A program made the position numbers and the translations under genes. 64,000 nucleotides of DNA, taken from assembly GCF_004010195.1 (NCBI RefSeq), contig NC_057758.1, positions 4,188,962-4,252,961 of the forward strand. Direction: 5' to 3'. The stretch is from Chiloscyllium plagiosum (taxonomy: Eukaryota). Below are positions 18,365 through 64,000 of this stretch, piece by piece. Under the pieces are notes generated by a model. It ran no database searches. It was not told the DNA's origin and saw only the letters and a list, made by a program, of their open reading frames with translations. The stretch's first letter is position 1. Each line of letters opens with the position of its first letter.

Positions 18365-19440
18365 TTATTTAGTCTTGGGCCCAGCATTTATGATCGATTC
18401 ATAATTACTCCTTGATAAGGCAGTAGTGAGCTGTCTAATTGAGTCGCTGAATTAATGGGGAATCAGTAGATCTATAGCGCCGGTACAGAGGGAATTCCGG
18501 GACATTGACCAAGTGACACTAAAGGAATGCTAAAAAAATGTCCGAGTTATTTTGGAAAGTATCTTGGAACGTACGGTTTTAATCTTCCAATGTATCTGCT
18601 GTCGTTCTCCTTGCAGGAAGTTGTGCGAAGATGATACCGAAGGAGCATTGCAGAATTTCTGCATGGCACATTGTAAGTAGTACACAGAAAGTGGTGGATA
18701 CTCGTGAATGTGGACCAGAGGCAATCCGTCTATTTTATCGACATAGCTGTTATCAGAGGTGCACGGGCTTTTGTTCTGCATCAATTTCTCCTTTAATTTG
18801 TCTTGGAACAAAAGCCCTGTTCCAAAGAAACTTGTAGTTATGTTGTCAATATTGCAGGCTACTTTATCCCGAATGATGCCGAGGTTCTAGAGTTGTATTA
18901 GAGCTGCATCCATCCAGGCACCTGTGGAGTATTCCATTCCACTTCTGACTTGTGCATATTCGATGATGCTTCATGAACAGCTCATGTTAGAAACGTCGAT
19001 TCCCCTGCTCCTCACATGCGGTCTGACGAGTTGTGTTTTTCCAGCACCACACTCTCGTCTTTGATCTCCAACATCTGCAGTTCTCACTTTCTCCCAGGCT
19101 TTGGAGGACGTCAGGTTAGTTGCACACTGCAGGATTGCTAGTCTCTGACGTGCTCTTGGATGCATTGAATGAATTTGGGAACTTCTGTTCATTTTCTGGT
19201 GAACAGTAACTCCTTAGACGCTCGTTGCAAGGGAATTCAATGATGGTAATTTGATTGATCGTCAAGGGGGGATTGTTAGATTCCATCCCAATAGCAATAT
19301 CCAGGATATTAATGGTTATTGAATTTGATAATCTTAACACCAAGTACTGTTGGTTACATTGTCTCTCAAAGGTAACCCTGATTACATTGATTCAGTGATG
19401 AGGATGCAATTGAACGGCAAGTAGCAAGAATGTGATTCCT
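18365..19440 (-). mobile_element. Decayed L2/CR1-clade LINE 3' portion, interrupted by a degenerate Penelope pLTR fragment (~18965-19097, +)
   Basis: cccagcattta..ccttga..aggcagtagtgagctg 3' motif; minus-strand peptide ARQRLAILQCATNL; the insert has gaaacgtcgattcccctgctcc..catctgcagttctcactttctcc. Confidence 0.55.
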
Positions 19441-30599: not shown

Positions 30600-31030
30600 T
30601 CATCCAGGGAGCCAGATTATGATATGCGCACCTGGGTTCGAATCCCGCCCTGGCAGTTGGTGGAATTGGAAATCAAACATTTAAAGAAATATGGACTTTA
30701 GATTCTAATGATGAACATAAGCCCATTGTCGATTGTCGGAAAAAAAAACAAGTAGTTCGCGAATGTCCTTCAGGGAAGGAAAGTGTCATCCTAAATCAAA
30801 CATTTAAAGAAATATGGACTTTAGATTCTAATGATGAACATAAGCCCATTGTCGATTGTCGGAAAAAAAACAAGTAGTTCGCGAATGTCCTTCAGGGAAG
30901 GAAAGTGTCATCCTTATGTGGCCTGGCGTACATGTGGCTCCAGACAGATAGAAATGAAGTTGACACCTCACTGGCGTCGAGATGGGCAATAAATGATTTC
31001 TAACCAGCGATGTCCTCATTCAGTGAATGC
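30600..31030 (+). mobile_element. DeuSINE/SacSINE1-like element with an internal 123-bp tandem duplication (30670-30914)
   Basis: B-box gggttcgaatccc, Deu-like aatgtccttcagggaaggaaa..tggcct..acatgtggctccaga, 3' gggcaataaatg; duplicated unit begins aaatcaaacatttaaag at 30670 and 30793. Confidence 0.7.
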
Positions 31031-33200: not shown

Positions 33201-35939
33201 CGACCAGGACCATGAGATGCAAATTCAATATTCGCAATAAGAAGCAAAGCTAACGTAAAATATTTGGACAAGCGAGGAATTTCAATTGGTGGATTTCTGA
33301 GTGGAATCTTTTATCTCTTCTGAAATTAGTGAAACACGATGATCTGATGGAATCAATAGACTTTATCTTCAATGGAACGACATTAGGCCATTCGAACTCT
33401 CGAGTTTGTCCAAACACTCAAGACATCCATCAACGGTTTGTTGATACATCTATATGCCTGCCGGGCCCGTGGCCTTGCTGAATAGAAAACAAATTATGCT
33501 TCAGATTTAGAATGGACAAATGGATTACCATCGATCACTTATTTGAGTACGAATGCTCCAAGCCTTCACTTTTCTTTGTATATCGAAGTGCTTGCGATCG
33601 TCTCTCCTGAATGAGCTGACCATAATCCTTATATTATAATTTGGGTTTCACTGTCTGAGCCGAGCATTGATTGCCCATCTCTCGTTGCCCTTGAGAAGGT
33701 GGTGCTGAGCTGACTTCTTGAATTACCGTCGTTCACATGCTGGAAGTAGACTCACGCTGTCCTTACCGAGGGATTTCCAGGATTTTGTCCCAGCACATCT
33801 GTGAAATAAATTTCAAAATGTGGAAATAGTTTATATTTATCAACACAGTCTTTCATTATCAATATCCTGAAGACCTCAATTAGATCACTCCTTAAACATT
33901 TGGATTCTTCAGAATAACGTTTTAATTTATCTCAAATCTCCGAAGAACGATAAACCCGAGGTTCAGGTATCATCCTTGTAAACCTGCAGCGATGTCCCTG
34001 CAGGACCAGAATACTCTCTGTAATAAGTGCTTCTGTTTCAGATCTGCACACAGTACTGTCCGTGAGCTACAGATTTGGAAATCAGAGTCCTTTTTAATCC
34101 TTCCTTGTTCAATGTTACGAGGTTTTCTGCCTCTATCAGCCTTAAGCGTTCCAGAGTTATATATTCCTAATATTCACTGTGTGATTGAAAGTCCATATAC
34201 CCTCCAAATCTTATTTCAATAAACCTATCCACCCCATTGACTGATGCATCTGTGAGGTGGAATAGTTTCTTAACCTCCACACTATGTATTCCTCTCACCA
34301 CTGACACATCTCAATCTTAATCTTTCCAAACAAGTCCAGTCTGTCCAATCTCTCTTCACGACTGAAACTCTTCAGCTCAGGCACGATATTGGTTAATCGC
34401 ATATCATCCCCAACCCACCCCCATCCATTACAATCACATTCTTCCTATCTTGAGTATTCCATAATACTTTTCCTCTGTCCTGAGCAACATTTTGTACAGT
34501 TTCAGCTTTCTCAGCGGTACCACGACTGTTTCAAATCTTCCGTTAAGAGGTGAAGGGCTGTCTGTGTCTGAGATAGAGCCCTGAGCAGCTGAGCAAGAGT
34601 TGTGAAAACATTGCTGCTTTTACATGTAGACCTAGTTCTGGTACAGCATGCGAGTAGCTGAGGGATTGACCATACTCCTGACCATACCTAAGGACTCTCA
34701 GCCCACTGGCCAACTTGCTTACCACAAGGTTCAAAAGGCATTAAGCCTGGTAGGAGCGACTATTTATGAGGATTAGATTCAACCGCACTCATTGCAATTG
34801 ACAAGACTCAAAGACAATATCATTGAAATATGCAATATTTGTTAGGGACGCGAAAGGTGAGGTGCAGAAATGTATTTTCCCCAGAGGTAGTTTTGAGGAC
34901 CAGGGAGATTCGTCTCATAATAATGGGTCACCGATTGAGATGGAATCTCCTGTCTCAAAGGATAGTGAACCTTTGGAATTCTTTACTACAGATGGCTGTG
35001 GAGGTTGGGTCTTTCGGTATATTTAAGGCTGTAACAAATTAAGTTTAATCAGGATGGGGAATCGAGAGTTATGGGGAAAATGCAGGGAAGTCGATTCAGT
35101 ATGATCTGAACAGTCGCGATCTCATGGAGTCCCAGTGCAGTATCGATGAGCGGTCTGTGGCGAGAAGATCTTATTTGGATTAGTGAGACTCCAAAAAACA
35201 CAATACCCCAAGTATGGTCTCGCTAAAGCCCTGTATAACTTCAATGAGCTATCCCAACTCCTGAACTCCATTCCCCTTGCAAATAAGGCCAACATATCAT
35301 TTGACTTGCATTAACGGAGGCAGCGAGTGAGCTGTTGATTCCAAGCAACTTGAGAAACATGGTCAGACAGGATAGTGACTGGTTCTGTTTCAGAGGAAAT
35401 TTCGAACAAAATAACATGCGCACGACAAAAATGTTTAAAGATTTTGTTATGGACCAGACCGACCACGCCATCAAAAGATTTCAAGGAAGTACTCAGACCC
35501 TAACTTTGTTAATTGTCCGAAGCAGGTTCAGAGCAGCTATTCCTGAGTGATGCAGCTGGCCCCACCAGTTAGTTTGCAGAAAATCAGAATTAATTTGCAA
35601 GATTAGCGAATGGAACACAAACAACAGAGACCAGAATATACACAAACGTAACCGATCTGAAAGCGGAACAGATTATCCCAACTTAATCATGTTGCAAATT
35701 ACTGCAACAACCTCCATAAACACGACCTTGGCACAAATTATAAAATCAAACATAGGGTCCACAGGGGAGAGACAGCAGAGAGATTCAGCATGGAACACCT
35801 TCTTCCATCGCTTATTTGACGAGCAGCCTCAAAACTGACTGACTACTTGCTCTGATCAGCCAGACTGCTCAATCTGAAACCAAATCAAGGGTTAAAGGAG
35901 AAACATTGTCCGACATGGGAAACACAATCAGCACATCCT

Positions 35940-36890
35940 AGACGAGGGGAGAGTTGAGAAAGTCATGCCAGCACTGTATTAATGACTTGGAGCAAAGAAC
36001 TGAACATCTAGTCACCAAAATTGTTCACAACATTACGATTGGTGGAATGGCAAGTTGCGAGCAAAATCTAAACAATTAATTGAAATATATTAATTGTTCA
36101 AGTCAGTGGACACAAAATTGACAAGTATCTTATAACATTGAAAGACGTGAAGATATTTGTTTTGGAAGGGGGAATTTTAAATAAAGAAAACTGCAACACA
36201 ATGGGACTTGGGAGAAAATGTTCTCTAAACACAAAAAGCTGGTAGGGAGGGGCAACAGACATTCACAAAGGCTAATGGAATGTTGATCGTTATTTCAAGA
36301 TTTTCAAGTATCATATCAGGGAGGTCTGACTGCAACTGATCAAGGTTCTGGGGAGACAATGTCTGGAATACTGTGAACAGTTTTTGTTCCCTCATTGAAG
36401 GAAAAATCTCATTTCATTGGAGGCAGTTTAGGGAAGGTACACTAGGATGATTTCAGGTTTGAAGGAAGTATCTCATAAGCAAAGCCTAAGTCTGTCGGCA
36501 TCTATTCACTGAATATTTCGAGAATGAGCGTTGTTTTCATTTGGAGCATACATGATTCTGAAGCGTGATTGCAAGGGTAAATGCTGATAGGAGGTTTTCC
36601 TTCATCGTGGAATCCAGGACCAGAGAATCAGAATAAGTAAGCAGCAATTTATACAGAGATGAGGAGGAATTTCTTCTCTCGGAAGGTTGTGAATTTTTGG
36701 AACTCTGTGTCACAGAGAGCTATGGTGGCCAGACGTTTTGTGTAAACGTAAGATAGGTAGACTTTATCAATCGGGGATTCACGGATTACAGACGAAGTCA
36801 GGAAAGTGGATGAGACGAATTTTGGAACAGAGACGATCCTCTCTTACTGGCAGAGCAGGTTTGAGGGGCAGACCTGTCCACTTCTCGTCG
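35940..36890 (+). mobile_element. Old CR1 LINE 3' portion (duplicated at ~58020-58970)
   Basis: gagatgaggaggaatttcttctctc..ggttgtgaat..ttggaactct 3' CR1 motif and decayed RT C-terminus. Confidence 0.7.
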
Positions 36891-37609
36891 TATCTGATTT
36901 TAAATAACGTTTTTCTCAACCATTCATTCCAAAATGATATTTTCCCCGTTCAGACTTCAACAAGTTTAATGTTTAAAAACCTGTAATCATTTCGGAGAAC
37001 CTGAACAGACGCGGGGGACAGGGTGGGTGTCGGGATGGTAGGCTCGGGGTAAGGTGTGAATTACGAAGGCAAAAAGAAACCTTATCACCACTCTCTAATC
37101 ACGAAGGAGATCCAGTGTAACCATTATCATGTAATCAGACGGCCTATTCAGTCATATTTGGTCACTCAACAATTCTCAGTTGCTGGAATGTCTGTGTCAA
37201 AACAATCACTACTCTGTTGCACGGCTGATACTTGGATGCTACGAAGTGTGTAACATGTGCACTTTCAACAGTAAAACAGCATCTGAAGTGATAAATATTG
37301 ACAGTGTCAGATAACTAACATATGGACACTCGACAGCATGCAGATTGTGCACTGCCTTCAGTAAGACAATATGTACAGTGTTGGAGAACTGAGGTTTGGA
37401 CATTCAGCAGCATGCATCATATGCATTATCTGCAATCATTCAATGTCTTCAGAGTGAGAGACTGATAATTGAACATTCAGCTCTGTGCAGCCTGTACATG
37501 GGAAACAGGATGGCAGAATTAGATGCTGGATCTTTTACACTCTTCAACGTGGGACAATGCAGATTTTGTTGAGTGACCCGATCTTTAATCCAGTAGATCT
37601 GGGTTAATA

Positions 37610-39135
37610 GAGCCATGGAATCCTGCAGCACGGAGACAGTGCCATTGCCTTGGCTGGTCCACGACATTCAAAATGTTAATCACCGTTAACTCCATTTCTC
37701 TTAGCCCATATCCTTCTAAACCTTTCCTATCCACGTATTGGTTAAAATGTATTTTAAATATTGTTAATGTACCTGCCCCAGCCACTTCTGCTGTCAGTTC
37801 ATTCCACATACATTCCATTTCACATGCGTACCACCCTCTGTGCAAAACGTTACCCCTCAGTTTTCTTTTTATTGTTTCCGCTTTAAACATAAGTTGATGC
37901 AATGTCGTCCTCAATTATCCAACGGTCGAAAAAGACTGAGCGCATTCACCCTATCCATTCCTCTCTAGATCTGACACACTTCTAAAAAAGTCTGCCTCGC
38001 CCCCATCTCCTATACACTGAAGAAAAATATCCTAGCTTGTACAATCTCTCCCTGTAACCAGACCATTGAGACCAAGCAACATTCTTCTCAATTTATTTTG
38101 CAATCTTTACAGTTTAATAACATCCTTCCTACAGCAAGGTGACCAATACTGAACACAATACTCCAACGTCCTGTACAAATGACACATGACATCCCAACTT
38201 CTATACTCAATGACTTGACTGATGAAGGCCAGTGTACAGTAAGCCTTCTTCACTGCCCTTTCTACCTGATACTCCACTTTCAGGGAACCCTGGATCTAAA
38301 ATCCAAAGTCCATCTGTTCCACGACAGTCCTTAATGCCCTACCTTTTACTATGAACCCCTACCTTGATGTGACTTCCCAACAAATGCAAGACCTCACGTT
38401 TATCTATAGCAAACTTCATTTGACAAATTTCAGACCACTTCCCCAGCTGATCAAGTCCTGCTGCCATTTCAGTCACCTTCTTCACTCTCCATGGTGCCGC
38501 CTGTATTAATGTCACCTGCAAATCTGCTCTTCAGGCCATGTCCAGTCTGATCCAAAACAGTGATACAGATAACAAACAACAGTCTGCCCTGCACCGATCA
38601 TTGAGCCACTCCACGAGTCATAGGCCTCCAGTCAGACAAGAAACTGTCCACAATACCCTCTGTTCTCTACCATCAAGCCAACTGTGTATCCAATTTGCCA
38701 GCCCTTCTGGATTCCATACGAACTGACCTTCCAGAGCAGCCTACCATATGCACCCTTAACAAAGAACATCCTGAAATCCATATAAGCCGCATCTACGGCC
38801 CCGCTCTCAATAAACTTTCTGGTCGCTTCATCAATGAAGTCTAACAAATTTGTTAAGCATGACATCCCAAGCAAATAAAAAAGTCCATGCTGACTGTTTC
38901 TAATTACCCCTATATATCTAAATGCTGGATTATCTTTTCTCAGGATCTGTTCACGTAACCTACCTACCACAGATTGATCTTCCTTTCCCAGGCTTTAATT
39001 TACGACCCTTCTTGAATAAGGGCACGCAATTCGCTGCTCTGCGGTCTTCTGGGACGTCACCCGTGGCTAATGAAAATGCAAAAATATCAGCCATTGACCT
39101 CGCGATGACTTCTCTGGCATTTGTCAAGCTTCTAA
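37610..39135 (-). mobile_element. CR1 LINE RT-3' fragment (duplicated at ~59745-61280)
   Basis: Peptides IRNSQHG..SCLTNLLDF..AAYMDFRMFFVK and WNELTAEVAGAGTLTIFK. Confidence 0.85.
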
Positions 39136-39139
39136 TTTG

Positions 39140-41360
39140 GATAGGCCAAGTTGGATTTTTTATCGGCTAACGAAACAGGCCAGGAGTTAGTTTTGAAGGT
39201 GGCTAAGCAATTTGGTGATAGTGACCACAATTCGGGTGTGTTTCCTATCGTGATGGAAAGGGAGATGTATATACTGCATAGTGTGGGACATAGCTGGGGA
39301 AAAGGCAATTATGATGCAATTAGGCAAGATTTAGTGAAACAAACGGAAGATAATGGGCACCATTGAAAAGTGGAGCTTGATTAAGGAACAGGTACTGAAT
39401 GTTCTTGATAAGTAAGTCCCTGTCAGGCAGGGAGGAAAGGGTTCAGCGAGGGCGTCGTTGTTAACTAAAGCAGTTGAATCCGTTATCAAGGAAGAAAGAG
39501 GCTTAAAGAAAGATGGCGCGTAAAGGCTCAGTGATGGCGCTAAAAAATTATAAGTTAGCCAGGATCGACTTAAAGAGAGAGCTAAGCAGTGACATGAGAG
39601 GACATGAGAATCTTTGGCAGGTCAGATCAAGAAAACCTGTTATGCTTTGTATAGCTATGTCAGGGATAAAAGAATGACAAGGTTTATATAAGGGGCAGTC
39701 AAGAGTAGCCCTTGGAAGGTGCGTGTGGAGGTTGAGGAGATAGGGCAGGCGTGAAAAGAATACTTCGCGTCCGTATTTACACTGGAAATAGACAATGTTG
39801 GCAAGGAGAATACTGAGAGACGAGATATTAAATGAGGCAGGATTGAGGTTCAGAAGGGGGAGGTGGTAGCAATTCTGTAAGTTGTGAAAAGAAATATTTC
39901 CCTTGGACCGAATGGGATTTGATCACGTATTCTCTGGAGGGTAAGGGAGGGGATTGCAGGACATTTGGCTTTGATATTTCTGTCGTCATTGACTACAGGA
40001 ATAGTGGCAGAAGACTGGAGCATTGACCACAGGAATAGTGGCAGAAGACTGGAGGAGAGCAAATATTGTCCCCTGGTTCAAGAACGGAAGTAGAGATAAC
40101 CCTGGACATTACCTGTCTTCAATTGCGAGAAAAGTATTGGAAAGGATTACGATAGAAATGATTTGAAACCATCTGGCAAGGAACAATTTGATTTGGGTTT
40201 GTCAACAAGGTTTTGTAAAGGGTACGTCGTGCCTCAAAAACCTTATTGAGTTGTTTCAGAAGGTAACCAAACAGGTGGATTCGGGTATAGTTATAATGCA
40301 GTGTATATAATTTCAGTAAGGCGATTGATAAGGTTCTCCTTGATAAGCTATTGCACAACATATGGAGGCAGAGGATTGAGTGTGTTTTACCAGTTTGGAT
40401 CAGAGATTGGCTCACTGAAAGAAGACAGAAGGGGCTTTCTTTGATGGGATATGAACATTTACTAGCGGTATACCGCAAAGATCTGTTTAGGGACCGGTGC
40501 TGTTTGTCATTTGTATTCAAGGAACTGGATGAGAGCGTAGAAAGATGGGTTAATGAAGTTGGAGGTGACACTAAAGTCAGTGGAGTTGTGGTCAGTGCCA
40601 ACAGGATGTTGCAGGTTCCAGACCGACAATGACAAGCTGCAGAACTAGGCTGACAGATGGTAAATAGAGGCTAAGGCGGAGAAGCTGCATGGTAAGATTC
40701 TGGGGAGTGTGGATGAGCACAGAGATTTCAGTGATCGATGCCACACAGGTTGATAGGGATACAAAGATATTGTATAGTGTGTTCGCTTTTATAGGTGAGG
40801 GATTGAGTTTCGATGCAATCAGATCATGTTGCTGTACGAGTCACTGGTGCAGCTTCACTTGGAGTACTGCATGCAGTTCTGGTTGCTGCATGAGAGAAAT
40901 GCTGTGTGAGATTTGGAAAGGGCGCAGGGGACATTTACCAGGATGTTGCCTGATATGGAAAGAAGATCTGAAGAGGAAAGGCTATGGTCCTTGAGGCTGC
41001 TTTCGTTAGAGAGAATGCAGAGAGGTCATGTAATTGAGGCATAAAAGATGGTCAGAGGATGGATAGGTGGATAGTGAGAGTCCCTTTCCTCGAATGATGA
41101 TGGCTAGCACGGGAGACATAACTTACAAATTGAGAGATGATAGACGGAGGACAGATGTGAGATGTAGGCTTTTATAGTCAGAGAGTAGTAAAAGCCTGGA
41201 ACGCCCTCCCTCAAACAGTGGTCGACTAACAAACGTTAAGGGCATTTAACTGTCATTGGATAAATAATGGATGAAAATGGAATAATGACAGTTAGATGAG
41301 CTTCAGATTGGTTTCACAGAACGGCGCAAAGATGGAGTGCTGAAGAGCTGCACTGTGTTC
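39140..41360 (+). mobile_element. CR1 LINE, endonuclease C-terminus through 3' end, head-to-head with the preceding element
   Basis: KQFGDSDHNS (endonuclease SDH motif), WIRDWLTERRQK, ELDESVERWVNEVGGDTKV; includes a 34-bp tandem duplication at 39987-40054. Confidence 0.85.
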
Positions 41361-41599
41361 TTGGATATATCTGTTCAGAACTAGGAGAGCATTCCATTTA
41401 TTACCTTCTAATACATTCAAAATAACCTCTACTGTGATGTGGGCTTTCCCCAAGATATCACAAAAACATCCCCAAGTTCCTAAGTCTTGATATCTTATTC
41501 CATGACAAACGCAGAGGATAAATGATCATGGAGGAACTTGCCCATTTCCTGCTCATCTCCATGTGCATTATTACTTTGTTACTACAGGGGACATCTCTT

Positions 41600-42110: not shown

Positions 42111-43439
42111 CCATCATCTCCCACGTCACCTCATGAAACCAAGGAAGCAGAAAACCAACTTTAAAATGGCGCCAATGCTTTCTTTGAAATGAACAATGGC
42201 TGCTCGCAGTTCGGTCAATTGTTGACGGGGGTAGCAGCTAGAGTCTGTCTTTAACCCCGTTGAAATTCTACTGAGAATGATGCGTTTGAATCATTGAAAG
42301 AGCTGTGTGATATTGTCCGTTGTCCTTTGTTCTGCTGGATCTGCTGTAACTTTCCTTTCTGTTCACATATCGACTTACAGGGATATATTGTATGACCGAG
42401 TGAGCTACCAGCTCTCGTTGTTATGGCATGTTCCAGTTAACCAAACTTGAAAGCGTTTTCCACATTCCTCAAATCAGCCTTTTCGCAGTTCGCATCAGTG
42501 CATCTCGACCAGTGACTGAATCTCACCCAACCTCATACACTGCCGAGAAGCAGACCTCGAGATTTCCCTCCAGTACTCTGGCACCAACATACAAACCTCT
42601 CGACCAGACCAGAAAATGCATCACTGCTGATCTTGGGAGTTTACTGTGTGAAAACCGCAACTATTATCTCCCTGAATAAAACATTGGCATCACTAATTTG
42701 CTATTACACGTCTATCTAACATTCTAAGACACCTTGGGATTATCTCCCGCTCGCGCTATCCACTGTATTTCACGAAATTGCTCTACTTTTGTTTCGCAGT
42801 TGTTTTCCTTGTCTCATCCTTGTCCTGTTATATCTATTAAATCTGCGAACAATGCTTCAACTTTCCACCTTAGTGTTATTGCTATTGTGGCAAAGTTGAG
42901 GTTGGGTCACTGGTTTGCCGATTTTACTATCCGAATTATGTCAACAATGGAGATTCAGTTCGGGCATCAGCTGAGATAAAGATCATTAGGAATAAGACCA
43001 AACATCACTTATCCCACACTATCTATAATACAGAACTGAAGATGTATCTCTGTTTGATTGAGCATTTGGGTATGTTTGTCTGCGGTGTCTGTGCGAACAT
43101 TCATGTGTTACTGTGCATTGGTGACTTCGTGTGTGTATATGTCAGTGCATGTGGCCGGTGCTACATTTGAGTCTACACTTGTGCATGTTACAGTGTGAGT
43201 CATGAATGAAATGTCTCCCATGTGCATCATGGATTAAATCCGTGTTTTGTTTTTCACAGTTATTAACTACAGGAGACCCTGCGTTATCAATTGAGGACAT
43301 TCCATCTTCCAAATAGATTATACTGCAGCAGAAAATCAGCAGAGGATGAGAACTGTCCAGTTCTTGGTTTTTAGATTTTTGATGATGGTGCAGAGACCAT
43401 GAAATGTGGCGTTGGGAACGCATAGAAGGTCAGGCAACA

Positions 43440-43855
43440 CCTAAGGACTAGCAGGGTTGACGTTTTGGGCAGGACACTTCAACAATTCTGGGGAGTGGAG
43501 AGGCGGACTGAGAAATGAATACCAGGTTTAGTTCTCGGGTAAAAGGAGGTTGGATGACGATAGATGCACACAGGTAGGAGATGATTGTGCTAGGTCCGTC
43601 TGAAATGAGGAACGGACAGGTGGGAAGGAATATGTTAAGGTAGGGCAGGTCAATAGGATAGTGTCGAGTCAAAGGGTTGTATCTGTGATGGGAGTGACGA
43701 TTGGGAAACTAGTGAAGTCCGTGTTGATGCCATGTGCTTGTAGTTCCTCAAGGTGGAAAATGACATGTGCTTCCCCCAGTTTGTGGGTGGCCTTGATTAG
43801 GCGGTGGAGGAGACTCAGATTGGGCACATCATCGGGGGAGGTGAAATGGTTGGAC
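43440..43855 (-). mobile_element. Old Penelope-like fragment (GIY-YIG C-terminus and 3' region)
   Basis: HFTSP..LSLLH..ATHKLGEAHVIFHLEELQAHGINTDF parallels HFNSPSH..LGLLH..RRLEEERLIFRLG..PQGMNSDF at 55.5 kb. Confidence 0.75.
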
Positions 43856-45555
43856 ACCTTCAGTCTCTATAGCCTGGGCCCATCGAGATTGTGCTCATCT
43901 CCATGAAACCCAACTCACTCTTTTTGAAACGTCAAAACAGTTGATCACTGCATTGCTAACATCCTGTCATATTTGTCTAATTTCAGATTGTGACGATTGT
44001 GAACCATGTTGCCATCGGTGGGCCCAACGGTCAGAAATGGCAGAGACATGGTCATTACTGTCAGCTCCATACCAGCCAGCTTCATAGATTCACTGTTGAG
44101 ATAAAATACAAAATGCACCGTTACCATCTCTCTGAAGTATGAGTAGAGGGATAATAGACAATACGTTATAAACGCATGTTCACTTCCACCTAGAAGGACA
44201 AGGGTGGTAGACACAAAGGAGCATTTCAAATTGTACTCCAAGCCACTCACCATCGTGACTTGGAAATATATCAGTTATTCCTTAAATATCGCCCAGTTCA
44301 GATCCTAGAATTTATACCTCTGCAGTTGATTATGGGTCAGTCTATAGCACACGGACTGCAAGAAGGAGCTCATGTTCCCAACCCCCAACAACCGCATAAC
44401 CTCTTCTCTAAATTTGTCTGACAGTGAAAACATGGTGAAATAAAATCAGGAGAAAAGGGACAGTCGGAGTTATGATATGGTGAAGAAATTCGATTGTCAC
44501 CNNNNNNNNNNNNNNNNNNNNNNNNNNNNNNNNNNNNNNNNNNNNNNNNNNNNNNNNNNNNNNNNNNNNNNNNNNNNNNNNNNNNNNNNNNNNNNNNNNN
44601 NNNNNNNNNNNNNNNNNNNNNNNNNNNNNNNNNNNNNNNNNNNNNNNNNNNNNNNNNNNNNNNNNNNNNNNNNNNNNNNNNNNNNNNNNNNNNNNNNNNN
44701 NNNNNNNNNNNNNNNNNNNNNNNNNNNNNNNNNNNNNNNNNNNNNNNNNNNNNNNNNNNNNNNNNNNNNNNNNNNNNNNNNNNNNNNNNNNNNNNNNNNN
44801 NNNNNNNNNNNNNNNNNNNNNNNNNNNNNNNNNNNNNNNNNNNNNNNNNNNNNNNNNNNNNNNNNNNNNNNNNNNNNNNNNNNNNNNNNNNNNNNNNNNN
44901 NNNNNNNNNNNNNNNNNNNNNNNNNNNNNNNNNNNNNNNNNNNNNNNNNNNNNNNNNNNNNNNNNNNNNNNNNNNNNNNNNNNNNNNNNNNNNNNNNNNN
45001 NACACCCAACCAGTCACATGCCTCCAGACAGACAAGCATCCTTCCACTATTATCTTTTTTTCTTCTTTTTTAGGTTGAACAGGATATCTGACATTTCTGT
45101 TTTTTAACAGTCCACCTTAACTTTTTTCTAATAACCACACATACTACCGCCCAACTGCATGAGTGCTTATTTTGCCCCAGCAGCGAAGTTGTGTGTGTGT
45201 CTGTGCAGGTGTGTGACACAGTGAAAGACACAAGGTGTACAAAGCATTATTAAATTTCGACCACAAGAAGAAATTAAACACCTAAGTGGCCAACGACAAG
45301 CAGTGGCCTTCACATCAAAGGGCAATCCTGTGTGATCAGACAGTCAAGGGGAGGGAAGGGATTGGCGGGGAAAATAATATACTCCACTCCCTGCGGCACC
45401 CACTATTCCCTGAACAGCTCAAGGGTGTTGGTGGACACTGCGTGATCCTTCTCCAGACACCCGGGCTCTAACATAAACGTGGAAAGAGTGGCAGCCAGCC
45501 GGCTCTAACGACCTTCTCCATGGCCTGCTGCCTGGACCTGGTTATGATCAGTTTG

Positions 45556-45646
45556 CTGAAACTTTATTGCTGGAACAGCACAGCAGGTCAGGCAGCATCT
45601 AGGGAACAGAAGATTCGACGTTTCGGGCACATGCCCTTCTTCAGGA
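45556..45646 (-). mobile_element. 91-bp Penelope pLTR-derived insertion with 12-bp target-site duplication
   Basis: atgatcagtttg at 45544-45555 and 45647-45658 flanks a sequence homologous to one arm of the 4158-4380 palindrome. Confidence 0.85.
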
Positions 45647-45648
45647 AT
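45613..45648 (-). ncRNA. Minimal type I hammerhead ribozyme motif, best-preserved copy
   Basis: ATTC CTGAAGA A GGGCA-TG-TGCCC GAAA CG TC GAAT: perfect 4-bp stem I (ATTC/GAAT), stem II, conserved core, GUC triplet. Confidence 0.75.
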
Positions 45649-46039
45649 GATCAGTTTGGCCAGGCCGAGCAGCAGACCCACGAGGAGGTCCTCTGATCTA
45701 CCCTAAATTCTCTGTATCGATTTTCCGAAGATCAGAAGCGTGGGAGTGAACTGTAATTAAAATCAGAGCAAAAGGTTTTATTTAGAAATCACAAAGGGAG
45801 TGCAAGAACCCACACTCAATATAATTCTTCCAATATTACGCTCTGCTTCCTATCATTAATCCAATGTATGTCCAATTTGCTAGCTCCTTCTAGACTCCAA
45901 ATCGATCTAATCTTCCAGAGCACCCTACTACACTTATGAAAGGCCGAACTGAAATCCATATAGGCTGCATCGATCACACTTCCATTGTCAATATTCCAGG
46001 TCAGTTCATCAAAGAACTCTAAATGCTCCTCTGAAATAC

Positions 46040-49000
46040 GTAACTCGTGACTCAGTGGCCTCCATTCGCAGCAGCGGGAGCAGTGTGAGGGTGTATACGA
46101 AGACGATCAGGAAGGGAAGTTTCCATTTTAAAAACTGAAATCCTGAATAGTTGTGATGAAGTCTCAAAGACAGTGGACCGAGACACGGGGAATACTGGAC
46201 ACATGAACTGAGTGTATATTCGGACCGTTGTGAAACTGGAGTAGCTACACTTGTCCTCCGCTACAGGGAGAAAAAGGCAGTATCTGGTGGCTTGGTAATG
46301 TCAGGCTTTTTTCCCCATTATTCAATCTCTGTTGGCAATTTAGAGCAAGGGGAAGGACGTTAGGGCAGTTACATGATCCTCTTGCAGGATGTGGGATGGA
46401 AGGGTTATCACTGGTGTCCCTGCTGACTGCAGCTGTGAGAAGTGCACCCAAATCCAAGTCCTCACAGATTAAGTTCGGCAACTGGAGCTGGATGAACTTC
46501 GGATCTTTCGACAGGCTGAGGGGTTAATAGGGAGGAATTATGCGGAGGTAGTCACACCTAAGGCTGAGGATAAATTTAGCTGGCTGATCGTCAGGAGAGG
46601 AAAAGACAATTGGCAGACAGTGTAGGGACAGCCAGAGGCGTTTCTCTCAATAATATTTATATCATTTTAAATTCTGTTGAATTGAGCAGCAACCTATCAG
46701 GAGAAACGACACGTTTCTGGCACTGAGCCTGGCTCTGTGGCTCAGAAGCGAAGCAGGAAACATGGGAAAACAACATTGATAAGAAATACAATGGCAAGAG
46801 TAACAGATAGGAGATTCTGTGGTTGCGAGCGAGATACCCATCTTATATGTTTCCAGGATCAAAGATGTTTTGGATAGGATCTACTGGATTTGTAAGGGGG
46901 AGGAAGAGGTGCCAGAATATCGCCATGCAAATCAGGACCAATAATATATGGAGGAAAAGGGATGAGGAGCTGAAAAAGAGAGATCAGGCGGAAGTTAGCA
47001 TATAGGACGATCAAAGTAGTAATCTAAGATTGCTACCCGCTCCACGTGCTAGTGAGGCGACGGATAATGAGGGAGTGCTGCTGAACACGTTGCCTCAGGG
47101 TGGCGAAGGAGGGATGGCTTCAGATATGTGTATCTTTGGGATGCCCTTTGGGGAATGTGGGATCTTTAGAAGGACGGGTTTCCCCTGAATTGGAAGGGCA
47201 GGAGTATTGCGAAAGCTTTTTGCGAAGATTTAAAATACATTGGAAAGGGGTGGGAACCAGAACTACAGATTGGGTGATGAATTAGGTAGTTAACCAGCCA
47301 GATGCAGTGTGCAGAGAGTCTGTGAGTAGGCATAGCAACTTGATAGGGCAAACGTGCAGTAAGTGTAATAATTCAAGAAGTATCAGTATTAAAGGGGATG
47401 AACTCAGAGCATGGATCAGTACTTGGAACTATAACGTTGTGAAAATTACAAAGACTTGGATATGAAAGAGGCAGGAATGTTTGTTGGATGATCCAAGTGT
47501 CAGATGTTCCATAAACAATGGTGGGAGGTAATGGCGGGGAGTTTGAAGGTAATCGAGGTGGAGGAGTGACATTGCTAATCAGGAATTCTATCGCTACTGC
47601 AGAACGGGAGACGTCGAGGAGGGTCTGTCTCCAGAGTCACTTTGCTTTGAAGTCAGAAGCAGGAAAGGAGCAGCCACTTTATTGGACGTTTCTTTTATAG
47701 GCGCCTCAAAAGCAAGAAAGAGGCAGAGGAGCAAATTGGGAGGCAGATTTTCAAGCGGTGCAGAAGTAAGGCAGTTGTCAGAAGGTACTTCAACTTGTCT
47801 AATATTGATTGGAACTCCTTAATTCAAATTGTTTGGAATTAGCATTATTTGTCAATTGTGTTCAGGAAGGGTTTCTGGTGCAATATATGGATAGGCTGGC
47901 TCAAGGGAAGCCATATTGGATATGGTGTGATGCAATGAAACATGTCGGGTGTCAAATCACTCAGTGGGAGAGCATTTTAGTGATAATGATTACAACTCCC
48001 TAATGTTTACTATAGCCATCGAGAGGAATAGGAGCAGACGGTATTGGAACTACGATTTCAGTTGGCAATAACTGGGTTGCCTAAATTGGGAATGGATGTT
48101 CTCAGGCAGGTTAACAACAGAAATGTTGAGGTCGGTTAGGAAGCACATGCTCATAGTGCTGGGCAGGTTTGCCCCACCGAGGCAAGGAAGGAGTAGTAGA
48201 TTAAAAGAGCCTTGGATGATATGTGATGTGGAACATCTGGTCAAATGCAAGAAGGAAGCTTACATAATGTTGATGAGGCAACGATCTGACAGGGCTTTGA
48301 AGGACTACAAGGGTGGCAGGAAGAAAGTGAAGAATGGATTTAAGAGAGATAGAAGGAAATATGAAAAAAGCTTTAACGGGTAGGATTAAGGAAAATCCTA
48401 AGGCGTTGTGCATTTACGTGAGGAACAAGATTATAGCCAGAGTGAGGGTATGGTTGATCAAGGATAGTGGAGGTATTTTGTGGGTGAATAGGAAGGAAGT
48501 AGGGGAGCTCCTTAATGAATATTTTGCTTCATTATTCACAACTGAGAATGTCCTTGGCGTTTGGGAGGACAGAGGGAAATGACTGATGTGCTGGAACATC
48601 TTGATATTAGGAAGGAGGATGGGCTGAACATTTTGAAAAACATAAGGATGGGTAAATCCCCAGGGCTGGATGGGATATAACAGAGGTTTACTGCAGAAAG
48701 CGTGAGAAGAGAAGCTCCATCTTTGGCGATGATCGTTGCGCCCTCATTGTCCACTGGTACAGGACCAGATGAATTGAGGATGTCAAATGTTGTTCAAGAA
48801 ATCGATTAGGGATCATCCTCGGAATGAAAGACAAGCTACTCTTCCGTCAGTGGTGGCCGAAGTATTAGAGATCATACTGAGACACAAGAGTTTAGGGACT
48901 TTAAATTCGTAGCTTGATTTGACATAGCCATCATGTTTTTTTTGTGGGACAGCACTGCCTCACAAACATTATTGACTTCTTTGAGTATGTGAAGAAAAAC

Positions 49001-54089: not shown

Positions 54090-54296
54090 AAAAGTGGTAG
54101 TGCGGCACTGGAAAATCACAACCGATCAGGCAGCAACCGAGGACCAGAAGAATCAGGCATAGGACCTACATCAATAAGGGCTTATGCCCGGAACGTCAAT
54201 TATCTTGCTTCTTGCATGTTGCCTGACCTTCTGTGCTTTTGCAGCAACACAATCTCGACTCTGATCTTCACTATATGCAGTCCTCACCTTTTTCTG
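54090..54296 (+). mobile_element. Degenerate palindromic Penelope pLTR-derived insertion
   Basis: ctggaaaatcacaaccgatcaggcagc ... aagggcttatgcccggaacgtc ... ttgcctgaccttctgtgcttttgcagc ... gcagtcctcacc; hammerhead core mutated. Confidence 0.65.
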
Positions 54297-55429: not shown

Positions 55430-56377
55430 TAGCTGAAAGGGGCGGAGAGGTCAGGAAGAAGATTGCAGGTTAGGAAGGCCGTGCTAAGTTCGAGGGATTT
55501 GACTGAGACAAGGTGGGGTGAAGGGAAATGAGGAAACTGGAGAAATCTGAGTTCATCCCTTGTGGTTGGATGATTCCAAGGCGGAAGATGAGGCGCTCTT
55601 CCTCCAACCGTCGTGTTGCTATGGTCTGGCGATGGAGAAGTCCAAGGACCTGCATGTCCTTGGAGGAGTGGGACGGGGAATTGAAGTGTTGAGCCACGGG
55701 GTGGTTGGGTTGGTTGGTCCAGGTGTCCCAGAGGTGTTCTCTGAAACGTTCTGCAAGTAGGCGGCCTGTCTCCCCAATATAGGGGAGGCCACATCGGGTG
55801 CAGTGGATCTAATAGATGATGTGTGTGGAGGTGCAGGTGAATTTGTGGCGGATATGGAAGCATCCCTTGGGGCCTTGGAGGGAAGTAAGGGGGGAGGTGT
55901 GGGCGCAAGTTTTGCATTTCTTGCAGTTGCTCGGGAAGGGGACGGGAGTAGAAGGTTGGTGGGGGGTGTGGACCAGACGAGGGAGTCACGGACGGAGTGG
56001 TCTTTTCGGAACGCTGATAGTGGAGGGGAGGGAAATATATACCTGGTGATGGAGTCCGTTTGGAGGTGGCGGAAATGACGGCGGATGATATGCTGTACAT
56101 GGAGGTTGGTGGGGTGGTAGGTGAGGACCAGTGGGGTTCTGTCCTGGTGGCGGTTGCAGGTGCGGGGCTCTAGGGCGGAGGAGCGGGAAGTGGAAGAGAT
56201 GCGGTGGAGGGCATCGTCGACCACGTCTGGGGGGAAATTGCGGTCCTTGAAGAAGGAGGCCATCTGGGTTGTATGGGTTTGGAACTGGTCCTCCTGGGAG
56301 CAGATGCGGCGGAGACGAAGGAATTGGGAATATGGGATGGCGTTTTTACAGGGGGCATGGTGGGAGGAGGTGCAGTC
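55430..56377 (-). mobile_element. Young, truncated Penelope-like retroelement (RT C-terminus, Cys-rich linker, GIY-YIG endonuclease)
   Basis: DCTSSHHAPCKNAIPYSQFLRLRRICS..PLVLTYHP..SAFRKDHSVRDSLV; after one frameshift CKKCKTC..FTCTSTHIIY*IHCTRCGLPYIGETGRLLAERFREH..HFNSPSH..PQGMN. Confidence 0.92.
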
Positions 56378-59300
56378 TTAATCTTTCCAAACAACTCCAG
56401 TCTGTCCAATCTCTCTTCACGTCTGAAACTCTTCAGCTCATGCACGGTATTGGTCAATTGCATATCATCCCCAACCCACCCCCATCCATTATAATCACAT
56501 TCTTCCTATCTTGAGTATTCCATAAGGGCTCGCAATACTTTGCCTGTGCCCTGAGCAACATTTTGTACAGTTCCAGCTTTCTCAGCGGTACCACCACTGT
56601 TTAAAATCTTCTGTTAAGAGCTGAACGGCTGTCTGAGTCTGGGATAGAGCCCTGAGCAGCTGAGCAAGACGTCTCAAAACATTGCTGCTTTTACATGGAG
56701 ACCTAGTTCTGGTACAGCATGCGAGTAGCTGAGGGATGGACCATACTCCTGACCATACCTAAGGACTCTCAGCCCACTGGCCAACTTGCTTACCAGAAGG
56801 TCCAAAAGGCATTAAGCCAGTTAGGAGCGACTATTTATGAGGATTAGATTCTATCGCACTCATTGCAATTGACAAGAGTCAAAGACAATATCATTGAAAT
56901 ATGCAATATTTGTAAGGGACGCGAAAGGTGAGGTGCAGAAATGCCATTTACCCAGAGGTCGAGTTGAGGACCAGGGAGATTCGTCTCATAATAATGGGTC
57001 ACCGATTGAGGTGCAATTTCCTGTCTCAGAGGATAGTAAACCTTTGGAATTCTTTACCGCAGATGGCTGTGGAGGTTGGGTATTTCAGTATATTTAAGGC
57101 TGTGACAAATTAAGTTTAATCAGGATGGGGAATCGAGAGTTATGGGGAAAATGCAGGGAAGTCGATTCAGTATGATCTGAACAGTCGCAATCTCATGGAG
57201 TCCCAATGCAGTCTCGATGAGCGTTCTGTGGAGAGAAGATGCTATTTGGGTTAGTGAGACTCAACAAAACACAATACCCCAAGTATGGTCTCGCTAAACC
57301 CCTGTATAACTTCAATGAGCCATCCCAACTTCTGAACTCCATTCCCCTTGCAGATAAGGCCAACATATCATTTGACTTGCATTAACGGACGCAGTAAGTG
57401 AGCTGTTGATTCCAAGCAACTTGAGAACATGGTCAGACAGGATAGTGACTGGTTCCGTTTCAGAGGAAATTTCGAACAAAATAACATGCGAACAACAAAA
57501 TTATTCAAATATTTTGTTATGGACCAGGCCTGCCACGCCATCAAAATATTTCAAGGAAGTAGCCCAGACCCTAACTTTGTTAATTGTCTGAAGCAGGTGC
57601 AGAGCAGCTATTCCTGAGTGATGCAGCTGGCCCCACCAGTTAGTTTGCAGAAAATCAGAATTAATTTGCAAGATTAGCGAATGGAACACAAACAACAGAG
57701 ACCAGAATATACACAAACGTAACCGATCTGAAAGCGGAACAGATTATCCCAACTTAATCATGTTGCAAATTACTGCAACAACCTCCATAAACGCGGCCTT
57801 GGCACAAAATATAAAATCAAACAGGGCCCACTGGGGAGAGACAGCAGAGAGATTTAGCATGGAATACCTTCTTCCATCGCTTATTAGACCAGCAACCTCA
57901 AAACTGACTGATTACTTGCTCTAAACAGCCAGACTGCTCAATCTGAAACCAAACCAAGGGCAACATAACCGTGTCAAAGAAGAAACATGGTCAGACTTGG
58001 GAAACACAATCACCACATCCCAGACAAGGGGAGAGTTGAGAAAGTCGTGCCAGCACGGTATTAATGACTTGGAGCAAAGAAGTGAACATTCAGACACCAA
58101 AATTGTTCACAACATTACGATCGGTGGAATGGCAAGTTGCGAGCAAAATCTAAACAATTTATTGAAATATATTAATTGTTCAAGTTAGTGGACACAAAAT
58201 TGACAAGTATCGTATAACATTGAAAGACGTGAAGATATTTGTTTTGGAAGGGGGAATTTTAAATGAAGAAAACTGCAACACAATGGGACTTGGGAGAAAA
58301 TGTTCCCGAAACACAAAAAGCTGGTAGATAGGGGCAACAGACATTCACAAAGGCTATTGGAATGTTGATCCTTATTTCAAGAGTTTCAAGTATCATATCA
58401 GGGAGGTCTGACTGCAACTGATCAAGGTTCTGGGGAGACAATGTCTGGAATACTGTAAACAGATTTTGTTCCCTCATTGAAGGAAAAATGTCATTTTATT
58501 GGAGGCAGTTTAGTGAAGGTACACTAGGATGATTTCAGGTTTGAAGGGAGTATCTCATAAGCAAAGCCTAAGTCTGTCGGGATCCATTCACTGAATATTT
58601 CGAGAATAAACGTTGTTTTCAAGTGGAGCATACATGATTCTGAAGCGTGATTGAAAGGGTAAATGCTGATAGGAGGTTTTCCTTCATAGTGGAATCCAGG
58701 ACCAGAGAATCAGAATAAGTAAGCAGCAATTTAGACAGAGATGAGGAGGAATTTCTTCTCTCGGGAGGTTGTGAATTTTTGGAACTCTGTGTCATAGAGA
58801 GCTATGGTGGCCAGACGTTTTGGGTAAACGTAAGATAGGTAGACTTTATCAGTCGGGGATTCACGGGTTACAGACGAAGTCAGGAAAGTGGATGAGACGA
58901 ATTTTGGAACAGAGACGATCCTCTCTTACTGGAAGAGCAGGTTTGAGGGGCAGACCTGTCCACTCCTCTTCGTATCTGATTTTAAATAACGTTTTTCTCA
59001 ACCATTCATTCCAAAATGATATTTTCCCCGTTCAGACGTCAACAAGTTTAATGTTTAGAAACCTGTAATCATTTTGGAGAACATGACCAGACGCGGGGTA
59101 CAGGGCGGGTGTCGGAATGGTAGGCTCGGGGTAAGGTGTGAATTATGAAGGCGATCCAGTGTAACCATTATCTTGTAATCAGACGGCCTATTCAGTCATA
59201 TTTGGTCACTCAACAATTCTCAGTTGCTGGATTGTCTATGTCAAAACAATCACTACTCTGTTGCACGGCTGATACTTGGATGCTACGAAGTGCACTTTCT

Positions 59301-62068
59301 ACAGGAAAATAGCATCTGAAGTGATAAATATTGACAGTGTCAGATAACTAACATATGGACACTCGACAGTATGCAGATTGTGCACTGCCTTCAGTAATAC
59401 AATATGTACAGTGTTGGAGAACTGCGATTTGGACATTCAGCAGCATGCATCATATGCATTATCTGCAATCATTCAATGTCTACAGAGTGGGAGACTGATA
59501 ATTGAACATTCAGCTCTGTAGACTGTATTTGGGAAACAGGATGGCAGAATTAGATGCTGGATCTTTTACACTCTTCAACGTGGGACAATGTAGATTTTGT
59601 TGAGCTCTGGGAGACGGAAGGGAGCTTTGTGGCCTGTGAGTCTATGTTAGAGAACTCAAAAATCGGAAAATAGGAAGTCCGCTGAGTGGTCTTGTGGTGA
59701 CATGAAAGTGACTCTGTCTTTTATCCAGTAGATCTGGGTTAATCGAGGAATGGAATCCTGCAGCACGGAGACAGTGCCATTGTCTTGACATCCACGACAT
59801 TCAAAATGTTAATCACCGTTAACTCCATTTCTCTTGGCCCATATCCTTCTAAACCTTTCCTCTCTACGTATTGGTTAAAATGTATTTTAAATATTGTTAA
59901 TGTACCTGCCCCAGCCACTGCTGCTGTCAGTTCATCCCCAATACATTCCATTTCATATGCGTACCACCCTCTGTGCAAAACGTTACCCCTCAGTTTTCTT
60001 TTTATTGTTTCCACTTTAAACGTAAGTTGATGCAATGTCGTCCTCAATTATCCAACGGTCGAAAAAGACTGAGCGCATTCACCCTATCCATTCCTCTCAA
60101 GATCTGACACACTTCTAAAAAAATCTGCTTCGCCCCCGTCTCCTATACACTGAAGAAAGATATCCTAGCTTGTCCAATCTCTCCCTATAACCAGACCATT
60201 GAGACCAGGCAACATTCTTGTGAATTTATTTTGCACTCTTTCCAGTTTAATACCATCCTTCCAACAGCAAGGTGACCAATACTGAACACAATACGCTAAC
60301 CTCCTGTACAAATGACACATGACTGCCCAACTTCTATACTCAATGACTTGACTGATGAAGGCCAGTGTGCAGTAAGCCTTCTTCATTGCCGTTTCTACCT
60401 GAGACTCCACTTTCAGGGAACCCTGGATCTGAAATCCAAAGTCCATCTGTTCCACGACACTCCTTAATGCCCTACCTTTTACTATGAACTCCTACCTTTA
60501 TGTGACTTCCCAACAAATGCAAGACCTCACGTTTATCTATAGCAAACTTCATTTGACAAATTTCAGACCACTTCCCCAGCTGATCAAGTCCTGCTGCCAT
60601 TTCAGTCACCTTCTTCACTCTCCATGGTGCCACCTGTTTTAATGTCACCTGCAAATCTGCTCTTCAGGCCATGTCCAGTCTCATCCAAAACAGTGATACA
60701 GATAACAAACAACAGTGTGCCCTGCACCGATCATTGAGGCACTCCACGAGTCACAGGCCTCCAGTCAGACAAGAAACTGTCCACAATATCCTCTGATTTC
60801 TACCATCAAGCCAACTATGTTTCCAATTTGCCAGACCTTCTGGATTCCATACGAACTGACCTTCCAGAGCAGCCTACCATATGGATCCTTATCAAAGAAC
60901 ATCCTAAAATCCATATAAGCCGCATCTATGGCCCCGCTCTCAATAAACTTCCTGGTCGGTTCATCAATGAAGTCGAACAAATTTGACAAGCATGACATCC
61001 CAAGCAAATAAAAAAAGTCCATGCTGACTGTTCCTAATTACCCCTATATGTCTAAATACTGGATTATCTTTTGTCAGGATCTGTTCACGTAACCTACCTA
61101 CCAGGGATATTCACCTTATTGATCTTTCTTTCCCAGGCTTTTATTTACCGCCCTTCTTGAATAAGGGCACGCAGTTCGCTGTTCTGCGGTCTTCTGGGAC
61201 GTCACCCGTGGTTAATAAAAATGCAAAAATATCAGCCAATGTCCTCGCGACGACTTCTCTGGCATTTGTCAAGCTTGTAATTTGGATAGGCCAAGTTGGA
61301 TTTGTTATCGGCTAATGAAACAGGCCAGGTGTTAGTTTTGAAGGTAGCTAAGCAATTTGGTGATAGTGACCACAATTCGGTTGTGTTTCCTATTGTGATG
61401 GAAACGGAGATGTATATACTGCATGGTGTGGGACATAGCTGGGGAAAAGGCAATTTTGATGCAATTAGGCAAGTTTTAGTGAAACAAACGGAAGATAATG
61501 GGCACCATTGAAAAGTGGAGCTTGATTAAGGAACAGGTACTGAATGTTCTTGATAAGTAAGTCCCTGTCAGGCAGGGAGGAAAGGGTTCAGCGAGGGCGT
61601 CGTTGTTAACTAAAGCAGTTGAATCCGTTATCAAGGAAGAAAGAGGCTTAAAGAAAGATGGCGCGTAAAGGCTCAGTGATGGCGCTAAAAAATTATAAGT
61701 TAGCCAGGATCGACTTAAAGAGAGAGCTAAGCAGTGACATGAGAGGACATGAGAATCTTTGGCAGGTCAGATCAAGAAAACCTGTTATGCTTTGTATAGC
61801 TATGTCAGGGATAAAAGAATGACAAGGTTTATATAAGGGGCAGTCAAGAGTAGCCCTTGGAAGGTGCGTGTGGAGTTTGAGGAGATAGGGCAGGCGTGAA
61901 AAGAATACTTCGCGTCCGTATTTACACTGGAAATAGACAATGTTGGCAAGGAGCATACTGAGAGACGAGACATTAAATGAGACAGGATTGAGGTTCAGAA
62001 GGGGGAGGTGGTAGCAATTCTGTAAGTTTTCAAAGGAAATATTTCCCTTGGACCGAATGGGATTTGAT
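56376..62068 (+). repeat. Segmental duplication, copy B, direct part (corresponds to 34315-~39923)
   Basis: Starts tcttaatctttccaaacaa as at 34315; ends ccgaatgggatttgat at the gap, as at ~39923. Confidence 0.95.
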
Positions 62069-62568
62069 NNNNNNNNNNNNNNNNNNNNNNNNNNNNNNNN
62101 NNNNNNNNNNNNNNNNNNNNNNNNNNNNNNNNNNNNNNNNNNNNNNNNNNNNNNNNNNNNNNNNNNNNNNNNNNNNNNNNNNNNNNNNNNNNNNNNNNNN
62201 NNNNNNNNNNNNNNNNNNNNNNNNNNNNNNNNNNNNNNNNNNNNNNNNNNNNNNNNNNNNNNNNNNNNNNNNNNNNNNNNNNNNNNNNNNNNNNNNNNNN
62301 NNNNNNNNNNNNNNNNNNNNNNNNNNNNNNNNNNNNNNNNNNNNNNNNNNNNNNNNNNNNNNNNNNNNNNNNNNNNNNNNNNNNNNNNNNNNNNNNNNNN
62401 NNNNNNNNNNNNNNNNNNNNNNNNNNNNNNNNNNNNNNNNNNNNNNNNNNNNNNNNNNNNNNNNNNNNNNNNNNNNNNNNNNNNNNNNNNNNNNNNNNNN
62501 NNNNNNNNNNNNNNNNNNNNNNNNNNNNNNNNNNNNNNNNNNNNNNNNNNNNNNNNNNNNNNNNNNNN

Positions 62569-64000
62569 AGAGATGTCCCCTGAAGTAACAAAGTAATAAT
62601 GTATATGGAGATGAGCAGGAAATGGGCAAGTTCCTCCATGATCATTTATCCTCTGCGTTTGTCTTGGAATAAGATATCAAGACTGAGGAACTTGGGGATG
62701 TTTTTGTGATATCCTGGGGAAAGACCACAACACAGCAGAGGTTATTTTGAATGTATTAGAAGTTATTAAAATGGAATGCTCTCCTAGTTCTGAACAGATA
62801 TATCCAAGAGCACAGTGCAGCTCTTCAACACTCTTTGCGCCGTTCTGTGAAACCAATCTGAAGCTCGTCTGACTGTCATTATTCCATTGTCATCCAATGT
62901 TTATCCAATGACAGTTAAATGCCCTTAACGTTTGTGAGTCGACGACTGTTGCAGGGAGGGCGTTCCAGGCACTTACTACTCTCTGACTATAAAAGCCTCC
63001 ATCTCACATCTGTCCTCCGTCTATCATCTCTCAATTTGTAAGTTATGTTCCCCCGTGCTAGTCATCATCATTCGAGGAAAGGGACTCTCACTATCCAACC
63101 TATCCATCCTCTGACCACCTTTTATGCCTCAATTACATGACCTGTCTGCATTCTCTCTAACGAAAGCAGCCTCAAGTACCATAGCCTTTCCTCTTCAGAT
63201 CTTCCTTCCATATCAGGCAACATCCTGGTAAATGTCCCTTGCGCCCTTTCCAAAAATCACACATCATTTCTCTCATGCAGCAACCAGAACTGCATGCAGT
63301 ACTCCAAGTGAAGCTGCACCAGTGACTCGTACAGCAACATGATCTGATTGCATCGCAACTGAACCCCTCACCTATAAAAGCAAACACACTATACAATATA
63401 TTGATATCCCTATCAACCTGAGTGGCATCGATCAGGGGTATGTGTACATACACACTGAAATCTCTGTGCTCATCCACACTCCCAAGAATCTTACCATGCA
63501 CACTTCTCCGCCTTAACTCTATTTACCATCTGTCAGCCGAGTTCTGCAGCTTGTCATTGTCGGTCTGGAACCTGCAACATCCTATTGGCACTGACCACAA
63601 CTCTACTGACTTTAGTGTCACCCGCAAATTCATTAACCCATCTTTCTACGCTCTCACCCAGTTCCTTCAATACAAATGACAAACAGCACCTGTCCCAAAA
63701 CACATCTTTGCGGTATACCGCTAGTAAATGTTCATATCCCATCAAAGAAAGCCCCTTCTGTCTTCTTTCAGCGAGCCAATCTCTGATCCAAAATGGTAAA
63801 CCACACTCAATCCTATGCCTCCATATGTTGTGCAATAGCTTGTCACGGAGAACCTTATCAATCGCCTTACTGAAATTATATACACTGCATTATAACTTTA
63901 CCCGAATCCACCTGTTTGGTTACCTTCTGAAACAACTCAGTAAGGTTTTTGAGGCACGACGTACCCTTTACAAAACCGTGTTGACAAGCGCAAATCAAAT
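62569..64000 (-). repeat. Segmental duplication, copy B, inverted part (corresponds to 41598 down to ~40186)
   Basis: 62569 agagatgtcccctgaagtaac is the reverse complement of ~41578-41598; the window end caaatcaaat is the reverse complement of ~40186-40195. Confidence 0.92.

Follow-up and report, generated by a model that had tools for sequence, protein, structure and literature searches.

How does a 91-bp stretch of DNA that carries a hammerhead ribozyme motif come to lie in a LINE remnant of the shark Chiloscyllium plagiosum, and could so short a piece move by itself? The window analysed here, 64,000 nucleotides of contig NC_057758.1, holds the insert at 45556-45646 (minus strand) between exact direct repeats of 12 bp, one on the element's 5' side (45647-45658) and one on its 3' side (45544-45555), where the first base, 45555, also matches the element. 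A given 12-mer is matched by chance with a probability of about 8e-8. The empty site is preserved in a paralogous copy of the host (L087), which is 97.7% identical beside the site and holds the 12-mer only once. An earlier note on this DNA had described a clean insert with a 12-bp target-site duplication (TSD), and the exact repeats and the empty site confirm that the insertion is real. It is derived from a Penelope element and nested in the remnant of an L1-type LINE. A search with the 3' flank of the host, in which 40 of 3,683 candidates were scored, yielded 45 matches; 20 loci were fetched, and the insert is absent from all 19 of the other host copies among them (16 contiguous through the site, three cut off near it).

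The host is a decayed 3' fragment of the LINE, covering the end of ORF2 and the 3' UTR (approximately 45130-45745, minus strand). A relative 62% identical to a host copy (P0001) has L1-type Atlas neighbours and matches RVT_1 and zf-RVT, both below the Pfam cut-offs. The Tx1 label once given to this LINE is a tentative one. Excision of the insert was said to restore the host frame, and removal of the insert with one repeat does recover the peptide GLAKLIITRSRQ, but the restored frame is short. It has a stop 13 codons before that peptide and a frameshift soon after, so the host LINE was already a dead fragment. The sequence flanking it in the window is common to L087-L090 and L095, which places the host in a duplicated block, and the insertion would, to judge from these sequences, be later than the latest duplication of that block. 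A fragment of another LINE reverse transcriptase, presumably CR1-like, abuts the remnant at about 45760-46100 (minus strand), and the same join is found in L087-L090 and L095.

The insert is 100% identical to both copies of the terminal repeat (pLTR) of a Penelope element at another locus (L084), the relationship that the earlier note had presumed. There, the pLTR follows an ORF that ends in a GIY-YIG domain (PF01541, 22.9 bits for a cut-off of 22.6), and the translation can be read to include a CX2-5CxxC linker before GIY-YIG (with its internal cysteines). The accessible text of PMC8557442 gives this linker as a feature of the Neptune and Nematis clades. By its sequence features the family is thus an EN+ Penelope-like element of Neptune/Nematis type, the two clades not being told apart by them. 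Homologues of its ORF at 42-67% identity carry RVT_1, and the named ones come from sharks and rays. Between an optional tail of the pLTR and the start of the long ORF lie about 30 nt. No intact full-length copy was found among the loci recovered, and the sole long copy has its middle in N. In this copy (L138/L065, C1:10436545-10440596), a 5' ORF that contains a proline-rich tandem repeat is followed by an N gap and by an inverted internal segment, whose junction recurs in L021; the GIY-YIG end and the pLTR come last.

The Penelope sequence at 55.4-56.4 kb of the window, cited in the earlier note as encoding enzymes like those that would have mobilised the insert, is interrupted by a stop and shifted in frame, and its repeat is cut short ahead of the hammerhead. 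Its identity to the matching family is 84.7% over 772 bp. Broken and this divergent, it is not the source. Pfam scans of the window's ORFs were negative, and several of these ORFs are non-coding frames. Sister Penelope families have left head-to-head pairs at 4155-4380 and 13400-13584, with junctions at the 5' part of the hammerhead, one arm tailed and AATAAA absent, as well as older decayed pLTR stubs at 18990-19094, 43415-43471 and 54108-54290. The window also contains a direct duplication of about 7 kb (34312-41598 and 56373-64000, 92-95% identity) and two tandem pairs, of 326 bp (4769-5422) and 123 bp (30670-30914).

At its 5' end, the insert carries a minimal type I hammerhead motif (45613-45648, minus strand), which by its sequence and fold fits the definition of min-HHRs in the accessible part of PMC4209133. 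It consists of a 4-bp stem I, the core, a bulged A, a 4-bp stem II and a loopless, palindromic 2-bp stem III. The core (45644-45638), stem II (45636-45625), the GAAA-C-GUC stretch, the strands of stem I (45648-45645 with 45616-45613) and the predicted cut after 45617 all lie where they had been placed before. The Rfam scan of the window gave no match to a hammerhead family, the motif scoring below those models, and the motif folds no better than shuffled sequences. Single min-HHRs are reported not to cleave in what could be consulted of PMC4209133; dimeric hammerheads of Penelope-like elements are the topic of Lunse et al., as cited in the available text of PMC6765202. The insert site has a single hammerhead copy, whereas non-LTR retrozymes are defined by tandem units that each contain one.

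The idea that the target site completes stem I did not survive comparison with longer copies of the family. In these, the core is preceded by the element's own TCATTC, whose first four bases are the last four of the target. The target thus adds nothing that the element lacks, and the overlap is ordinary microhomology. It does include the outer two bases of stem I (45647-45648), as the earlier note had it, but it extends over 4 nt (45647-45650), with one further matching base at the 3' end, and not over 2 nt. Solo copies with a TSD often show microhomology of 2-5 nt, and microhomology has been described at the 5' junctions of Penelope elements (PMC3846280, in part). The letters ATTC are also kept in sister families whose stem I 3' strand pairs imperfectly.

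The second part of the supposed mobile unit is an AATAAA hexamer, present at 45563-45568 (minus strand) as claimed and a candidate poly(A) signal. The motif occurs in 90/93 copies of the family's two main variants and in 1/34 copies of sister families (129 motif copies in all, two further variants of the insert's family being set aside), and is therefore specific to the family. We rejected its being coding sequence of the main ORF, which begins only after the tail. The 3' junctions that we examined have no inserted poly(A) or A-tail. The proposal that hammerhead and poly(A) signal form a minimal mobile unit finds no support, given the near-absence of AATAAA from the sister families, the lack of poly(A) and the lack of both tail and downstream sequence in this copy: a conserved poly(A) signal and a poly(A) tail, expected of an autonomous minimal unit, are both missing. 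Without the pLTR tail and downstream sequence the insert would be unable to move again, and it is likely a dead end. Among the loci examined, the lineages seen to propagate consist of inverted or tandem copies that retain the tail, and the 5' ends of solo copies are heterogeneous.

The insert has a very large number of relatives. A 28-mer taken from it has 22,414 matches in the 3.56-Gb genome and its control none, these and the genome-wide counts below being pattern matches. For the ends of the copies, we used 100 arms, the matches listed for the 28-mer in the first 14 Mb of contig 1, with positions relative to the first base of the core. The 5' ends pile up at -7 to +2 (57 arms, made up of 23 of 45 solo and 34 of 55 inverted arms). 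Upstream of this pile-up there are none at -12 to -8 and 15 at -13 or further; downstream there are 8 at +3 to +9, 10 at +10 to +27 and 10 beyond +28. The ribozyme cut site, +28, was considered as an end point and is the 5' end of 0/100 arms. Genome-wide, the core has 15,270 exact matches, of which 5,543 keep the 12 nt upstream, a drop explained in part by point changes; approximately 36-45% of core-bearing copies extend upstream. In 2,540 core matches the similarity is lost right at -4, ATTC being preceded by a base foreign to the element. Among the first 100 such matches listed, 16 form eight perfect palindromic pairs in which both arms end at -4.

The 3' ends are equally constrained. They lie at either of two positions separated by about 35 nt, and 54/100 arms carry the intervening 34-nt tail. 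In each of the 27 anchored head-to-head pairs, one arm has the tail and the other lacks it. Among the solo arms, 23/45 have a called TSD of at least 8 bp (9-16 bp being typical), often with microhomology. The window copy is a solo, tail-less arm that starts at -2 (-6 counting the microhomology) and ends at the tail-less fixed point. It is thus a typical product of its family and of typical size, and the expectation that many genomic copies share its boundaries was borne out by the pile-up and the fixed 3' ends.

We consider it probable (roughly 0.6) that target-primed reverse transcription (TPRT) began within the element RNA and ran off at the RNA 5' end, just before the hammerhead. The pile-up would then correspond to a discrete 5' end of the RNA, where transcription probably starts, at the A of ATTC, a motif that may resemble an initiator. 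Three observations argue for a discrete end: the sharp upstream edge of the pile-up, the eight palindromic pairs with both arms at -4, and the conservation of ATTC without pairing. TPRT into the LINE remnant would have left the observed 12-bp duplication. Priming may have occurred at one of two fixed internal sites, by analogy with an Anolis element that, in vitro, primes at two internal sites bounding its tail and needs the sequence downstream of them (PMC11167929, in the part available). Priming 90 or 125 nt from the RNA 5' end, followed by run-off, would give stubs of the observed sizes. Ribozyme cleavage would have no role in making the insert; for the Anolis element, the same text reports that uncut RNA is the main substrate and that ribozyme mutants insert normally.

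Several points count against run-off. The in vitro evidence was obtained with a Poseidon element, of another clade, the sample of ends covers the first 14 Mb of one contig, and no intact full-length copy was recovered. Copies that extend upstream, some 36-45% as given above, mean that longer templates also exist. RNA data did not help, because the one informative run of raw reads had matches on both strands, 90% of them continuing into dissimilar sequence, and revealed neither a start nor an end site. A cap-derived extra G at -5 is suggestive only. The base at this position, counted by eye in the 100 matches listed, is G in 43, A in 47 and T in 10, and clear single extra bases at 70 loci are 5 G vs 2 A; many of the G's are explained by the opposite arm or by the TSD.

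Stubs also occur as inverted pairs (55/100 arms) and in partial tandems (L139-L155), and some of these have been copied further. In this genome (G000), one odd head-to-head junction is found at 111 dispersed places (L196-L225 were examined). They make up 69% of the 160 places that match the end of the odd cassette's arm, vs a few percent for ordinary arms. The left arm of the cassette lost its hammerhead by a deletion between two 5-nt repeats, and 52/100 listed copies, scored by eye, share an A-to-G change in its AATAAA. At 30 cassette loci, all left flanks differ and 19 have a TSD of at least 8 bp. In 29 of them it is the tail that terminates the left arm. The right arm reaches to the first end point at 15 loci and to a position close by at 2; at 3 others it extends to the tail, and at 10 it stops early. 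Extra flank has moved along with the cassette in two pairs, which have 510 and 126 nt of it in common. The shared junction, the private change, the separate TSDs and the differing flanks together indicate that whole head-to-head cassettes were re-copied, with polarity. The earlier suggestion of tiny mobile units is therefore partly borne out by the inverted stub cassettes, but not for the window copy and not for the reasons then given.

Other derivatives were seen as well. Three loci (L184, L188 and L192) have in common a complex junction and several private changes, with different right flanks, and represent a second inherited lineage. Tandem units of 224 bp, with hammerhead, tail and ORF start, share a junction at unlinked loci (L139-L142); pairs with this spacing lie at nine contig positions, and five copies at C8:24157653-24158518. 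A 320-bp unit occurs in L137, L154 and L155. The 224- and 320-bp units are retrozyme-like derivatives.

These cassettes suggest a second origin for the stubs, by copying from the hairpin RNA of a head-to-head master copy and stopping near the hairpin centre, which coincides with the 5' edge of the hammerhead. We regard this as unlikely for the window copy, though it is the strongest of the alternatives. Cassettes are copied whole, as the 111 copies with the one odd junction show, and the bases 5' of 28 solos match the opposite arm of four common junctions over at least 3 nt in 8 cases, vs 3.5 expected (P ~0.01-0.03), a small excess that favours hairpin templates for some solos. The window target itself matches one common junction over 5 nt, vs 4 nt for the linear repeat. 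On the other hand, 15 of the 28 solos match the opposite arm by the selection base alone, and the window copy has no opposite-arm base outside its TSD. Nor does a hairpin template account for the first formation of junctions at this spot. When counted by locus, about 19/27 inverted junctions are unique and some recur; since most differ and yet centre on the same place, they form afresh there.

Less likely still is that reverse transcription of a long Penelope RNA simply stopped too early, at a spot favoured by RNA structure, bound protein or microhomology. The 5' truncation typical of Penelope-like elements (PMC8557442, in part) fits such a stop, as do the arms that end outside the pile-up, 28/100 further 3' and 15/100 further 5'. 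Yet it does not predict the sharp upstream edge, with no ends at -12 to -8, or the precision of both arms at -4. A polymerase moving 3' to 5' would already have opened stem I on reaching this strand, and the motif, as noted, folds no better than shuffled sequences. The earlier proposal of a self-contained unit of ribozyme and poly(A) signal, transcribed, self-processed and re-mobilised in trans, is very improbable: thousands of copies are near this size and ORF-less derivatives of the family do propagate, the 224-bp tandem units included, but 5' ends differ base by base and avoid the cut site, AATAAA is not conserved, single min-HHRs did not cleave (PMC4209133, as accessible), the propagating cassette lineage primes from an arm that lacks the hammerhead and, in half of the copies, AATAAA, and propagating units keep the tail that the window copy lacks.

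Returning to run-off at the RNA 5' end, we tentatively extend it to the family, at somewhat less than even odds. If transcripts begin with the hammerhead and are primed 90 or 125 nt further downstream, the ribozyme-sized stub would be the default product. Pairs of stubs might then form palindromic, non-autonomous retro-cassettes, copied whole from the tail of one arm to the first end point of the other, the ribozyme of the priming arm being unneeded.

Much of this resembles known systems. As far as the available text of PMC8557442 and PMC3846280 goes, EN+ Penelope elements of Neptune/Nematis type have the same pLTR after a GIY-YIG ORF, optional tail of 30-40 bp at one end, head-to-head copies, variable TSDs, 5' microhomology and CX2-5CxxC linker; the very high copy number and tight 5' pile-up of the shark family are not described in those parts. 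The minimal hammerheads of metazoan Penelope-like elements in PMC4209133 (same restriction) are also of type I, with a short stem I, a bulged base before stem II, a G-C first pair and a palindromic loopless stem III, and are mostly single, dispersed motifs from truncated elements. Their stem II has 7-8 bp vs 4 in the window. The Anolis Poseidon element, PAc, also has a tail, close to the ORF start, that is delimited by two fixed 3' ends, and its insertion likewise ignores the ribozyme cut; it belongs to another clade, and the shark ORF starts about 30 nt after the tail and not inside the hammerhead (PMC11167929, in part). Animal non-LTR retrozymes, as presented in the accessible portion of bioRxiv 10.64898/2026.07.22.740005, are ORF-less, hammerhead-bearing and pLTR-derived like the insert, but are tandem repeats, which the family's 224-bp tandems fit better than a single 91-bp insert. 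Truncated and solo pLTRs, one-sided tails, inverted copies and dispersed minimal hammerheads were thus already described (PMC8557442, PMC3846280, PMC4209133 and PMC2377424, each in part). In the literature searched, which included few subscription papers and neither Repbase nor supplements, we found neither the 5' pile-up nor the inheritance of mini-cassettes described.

Taken singly, the insertion is ordinary. The population of stubs to which it belongs is informative about the insertion of Penelope-like elements and the function of their hammerheads, because its ends avoid the cut site and pile up at the 5' edge of the motif, and because at least one cassette has been inherited whole, with fixed polarity. 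The patterns of these stubs lead to concrete tests among self-priming, priming involving two RNAs and the copying of whole cassettes.
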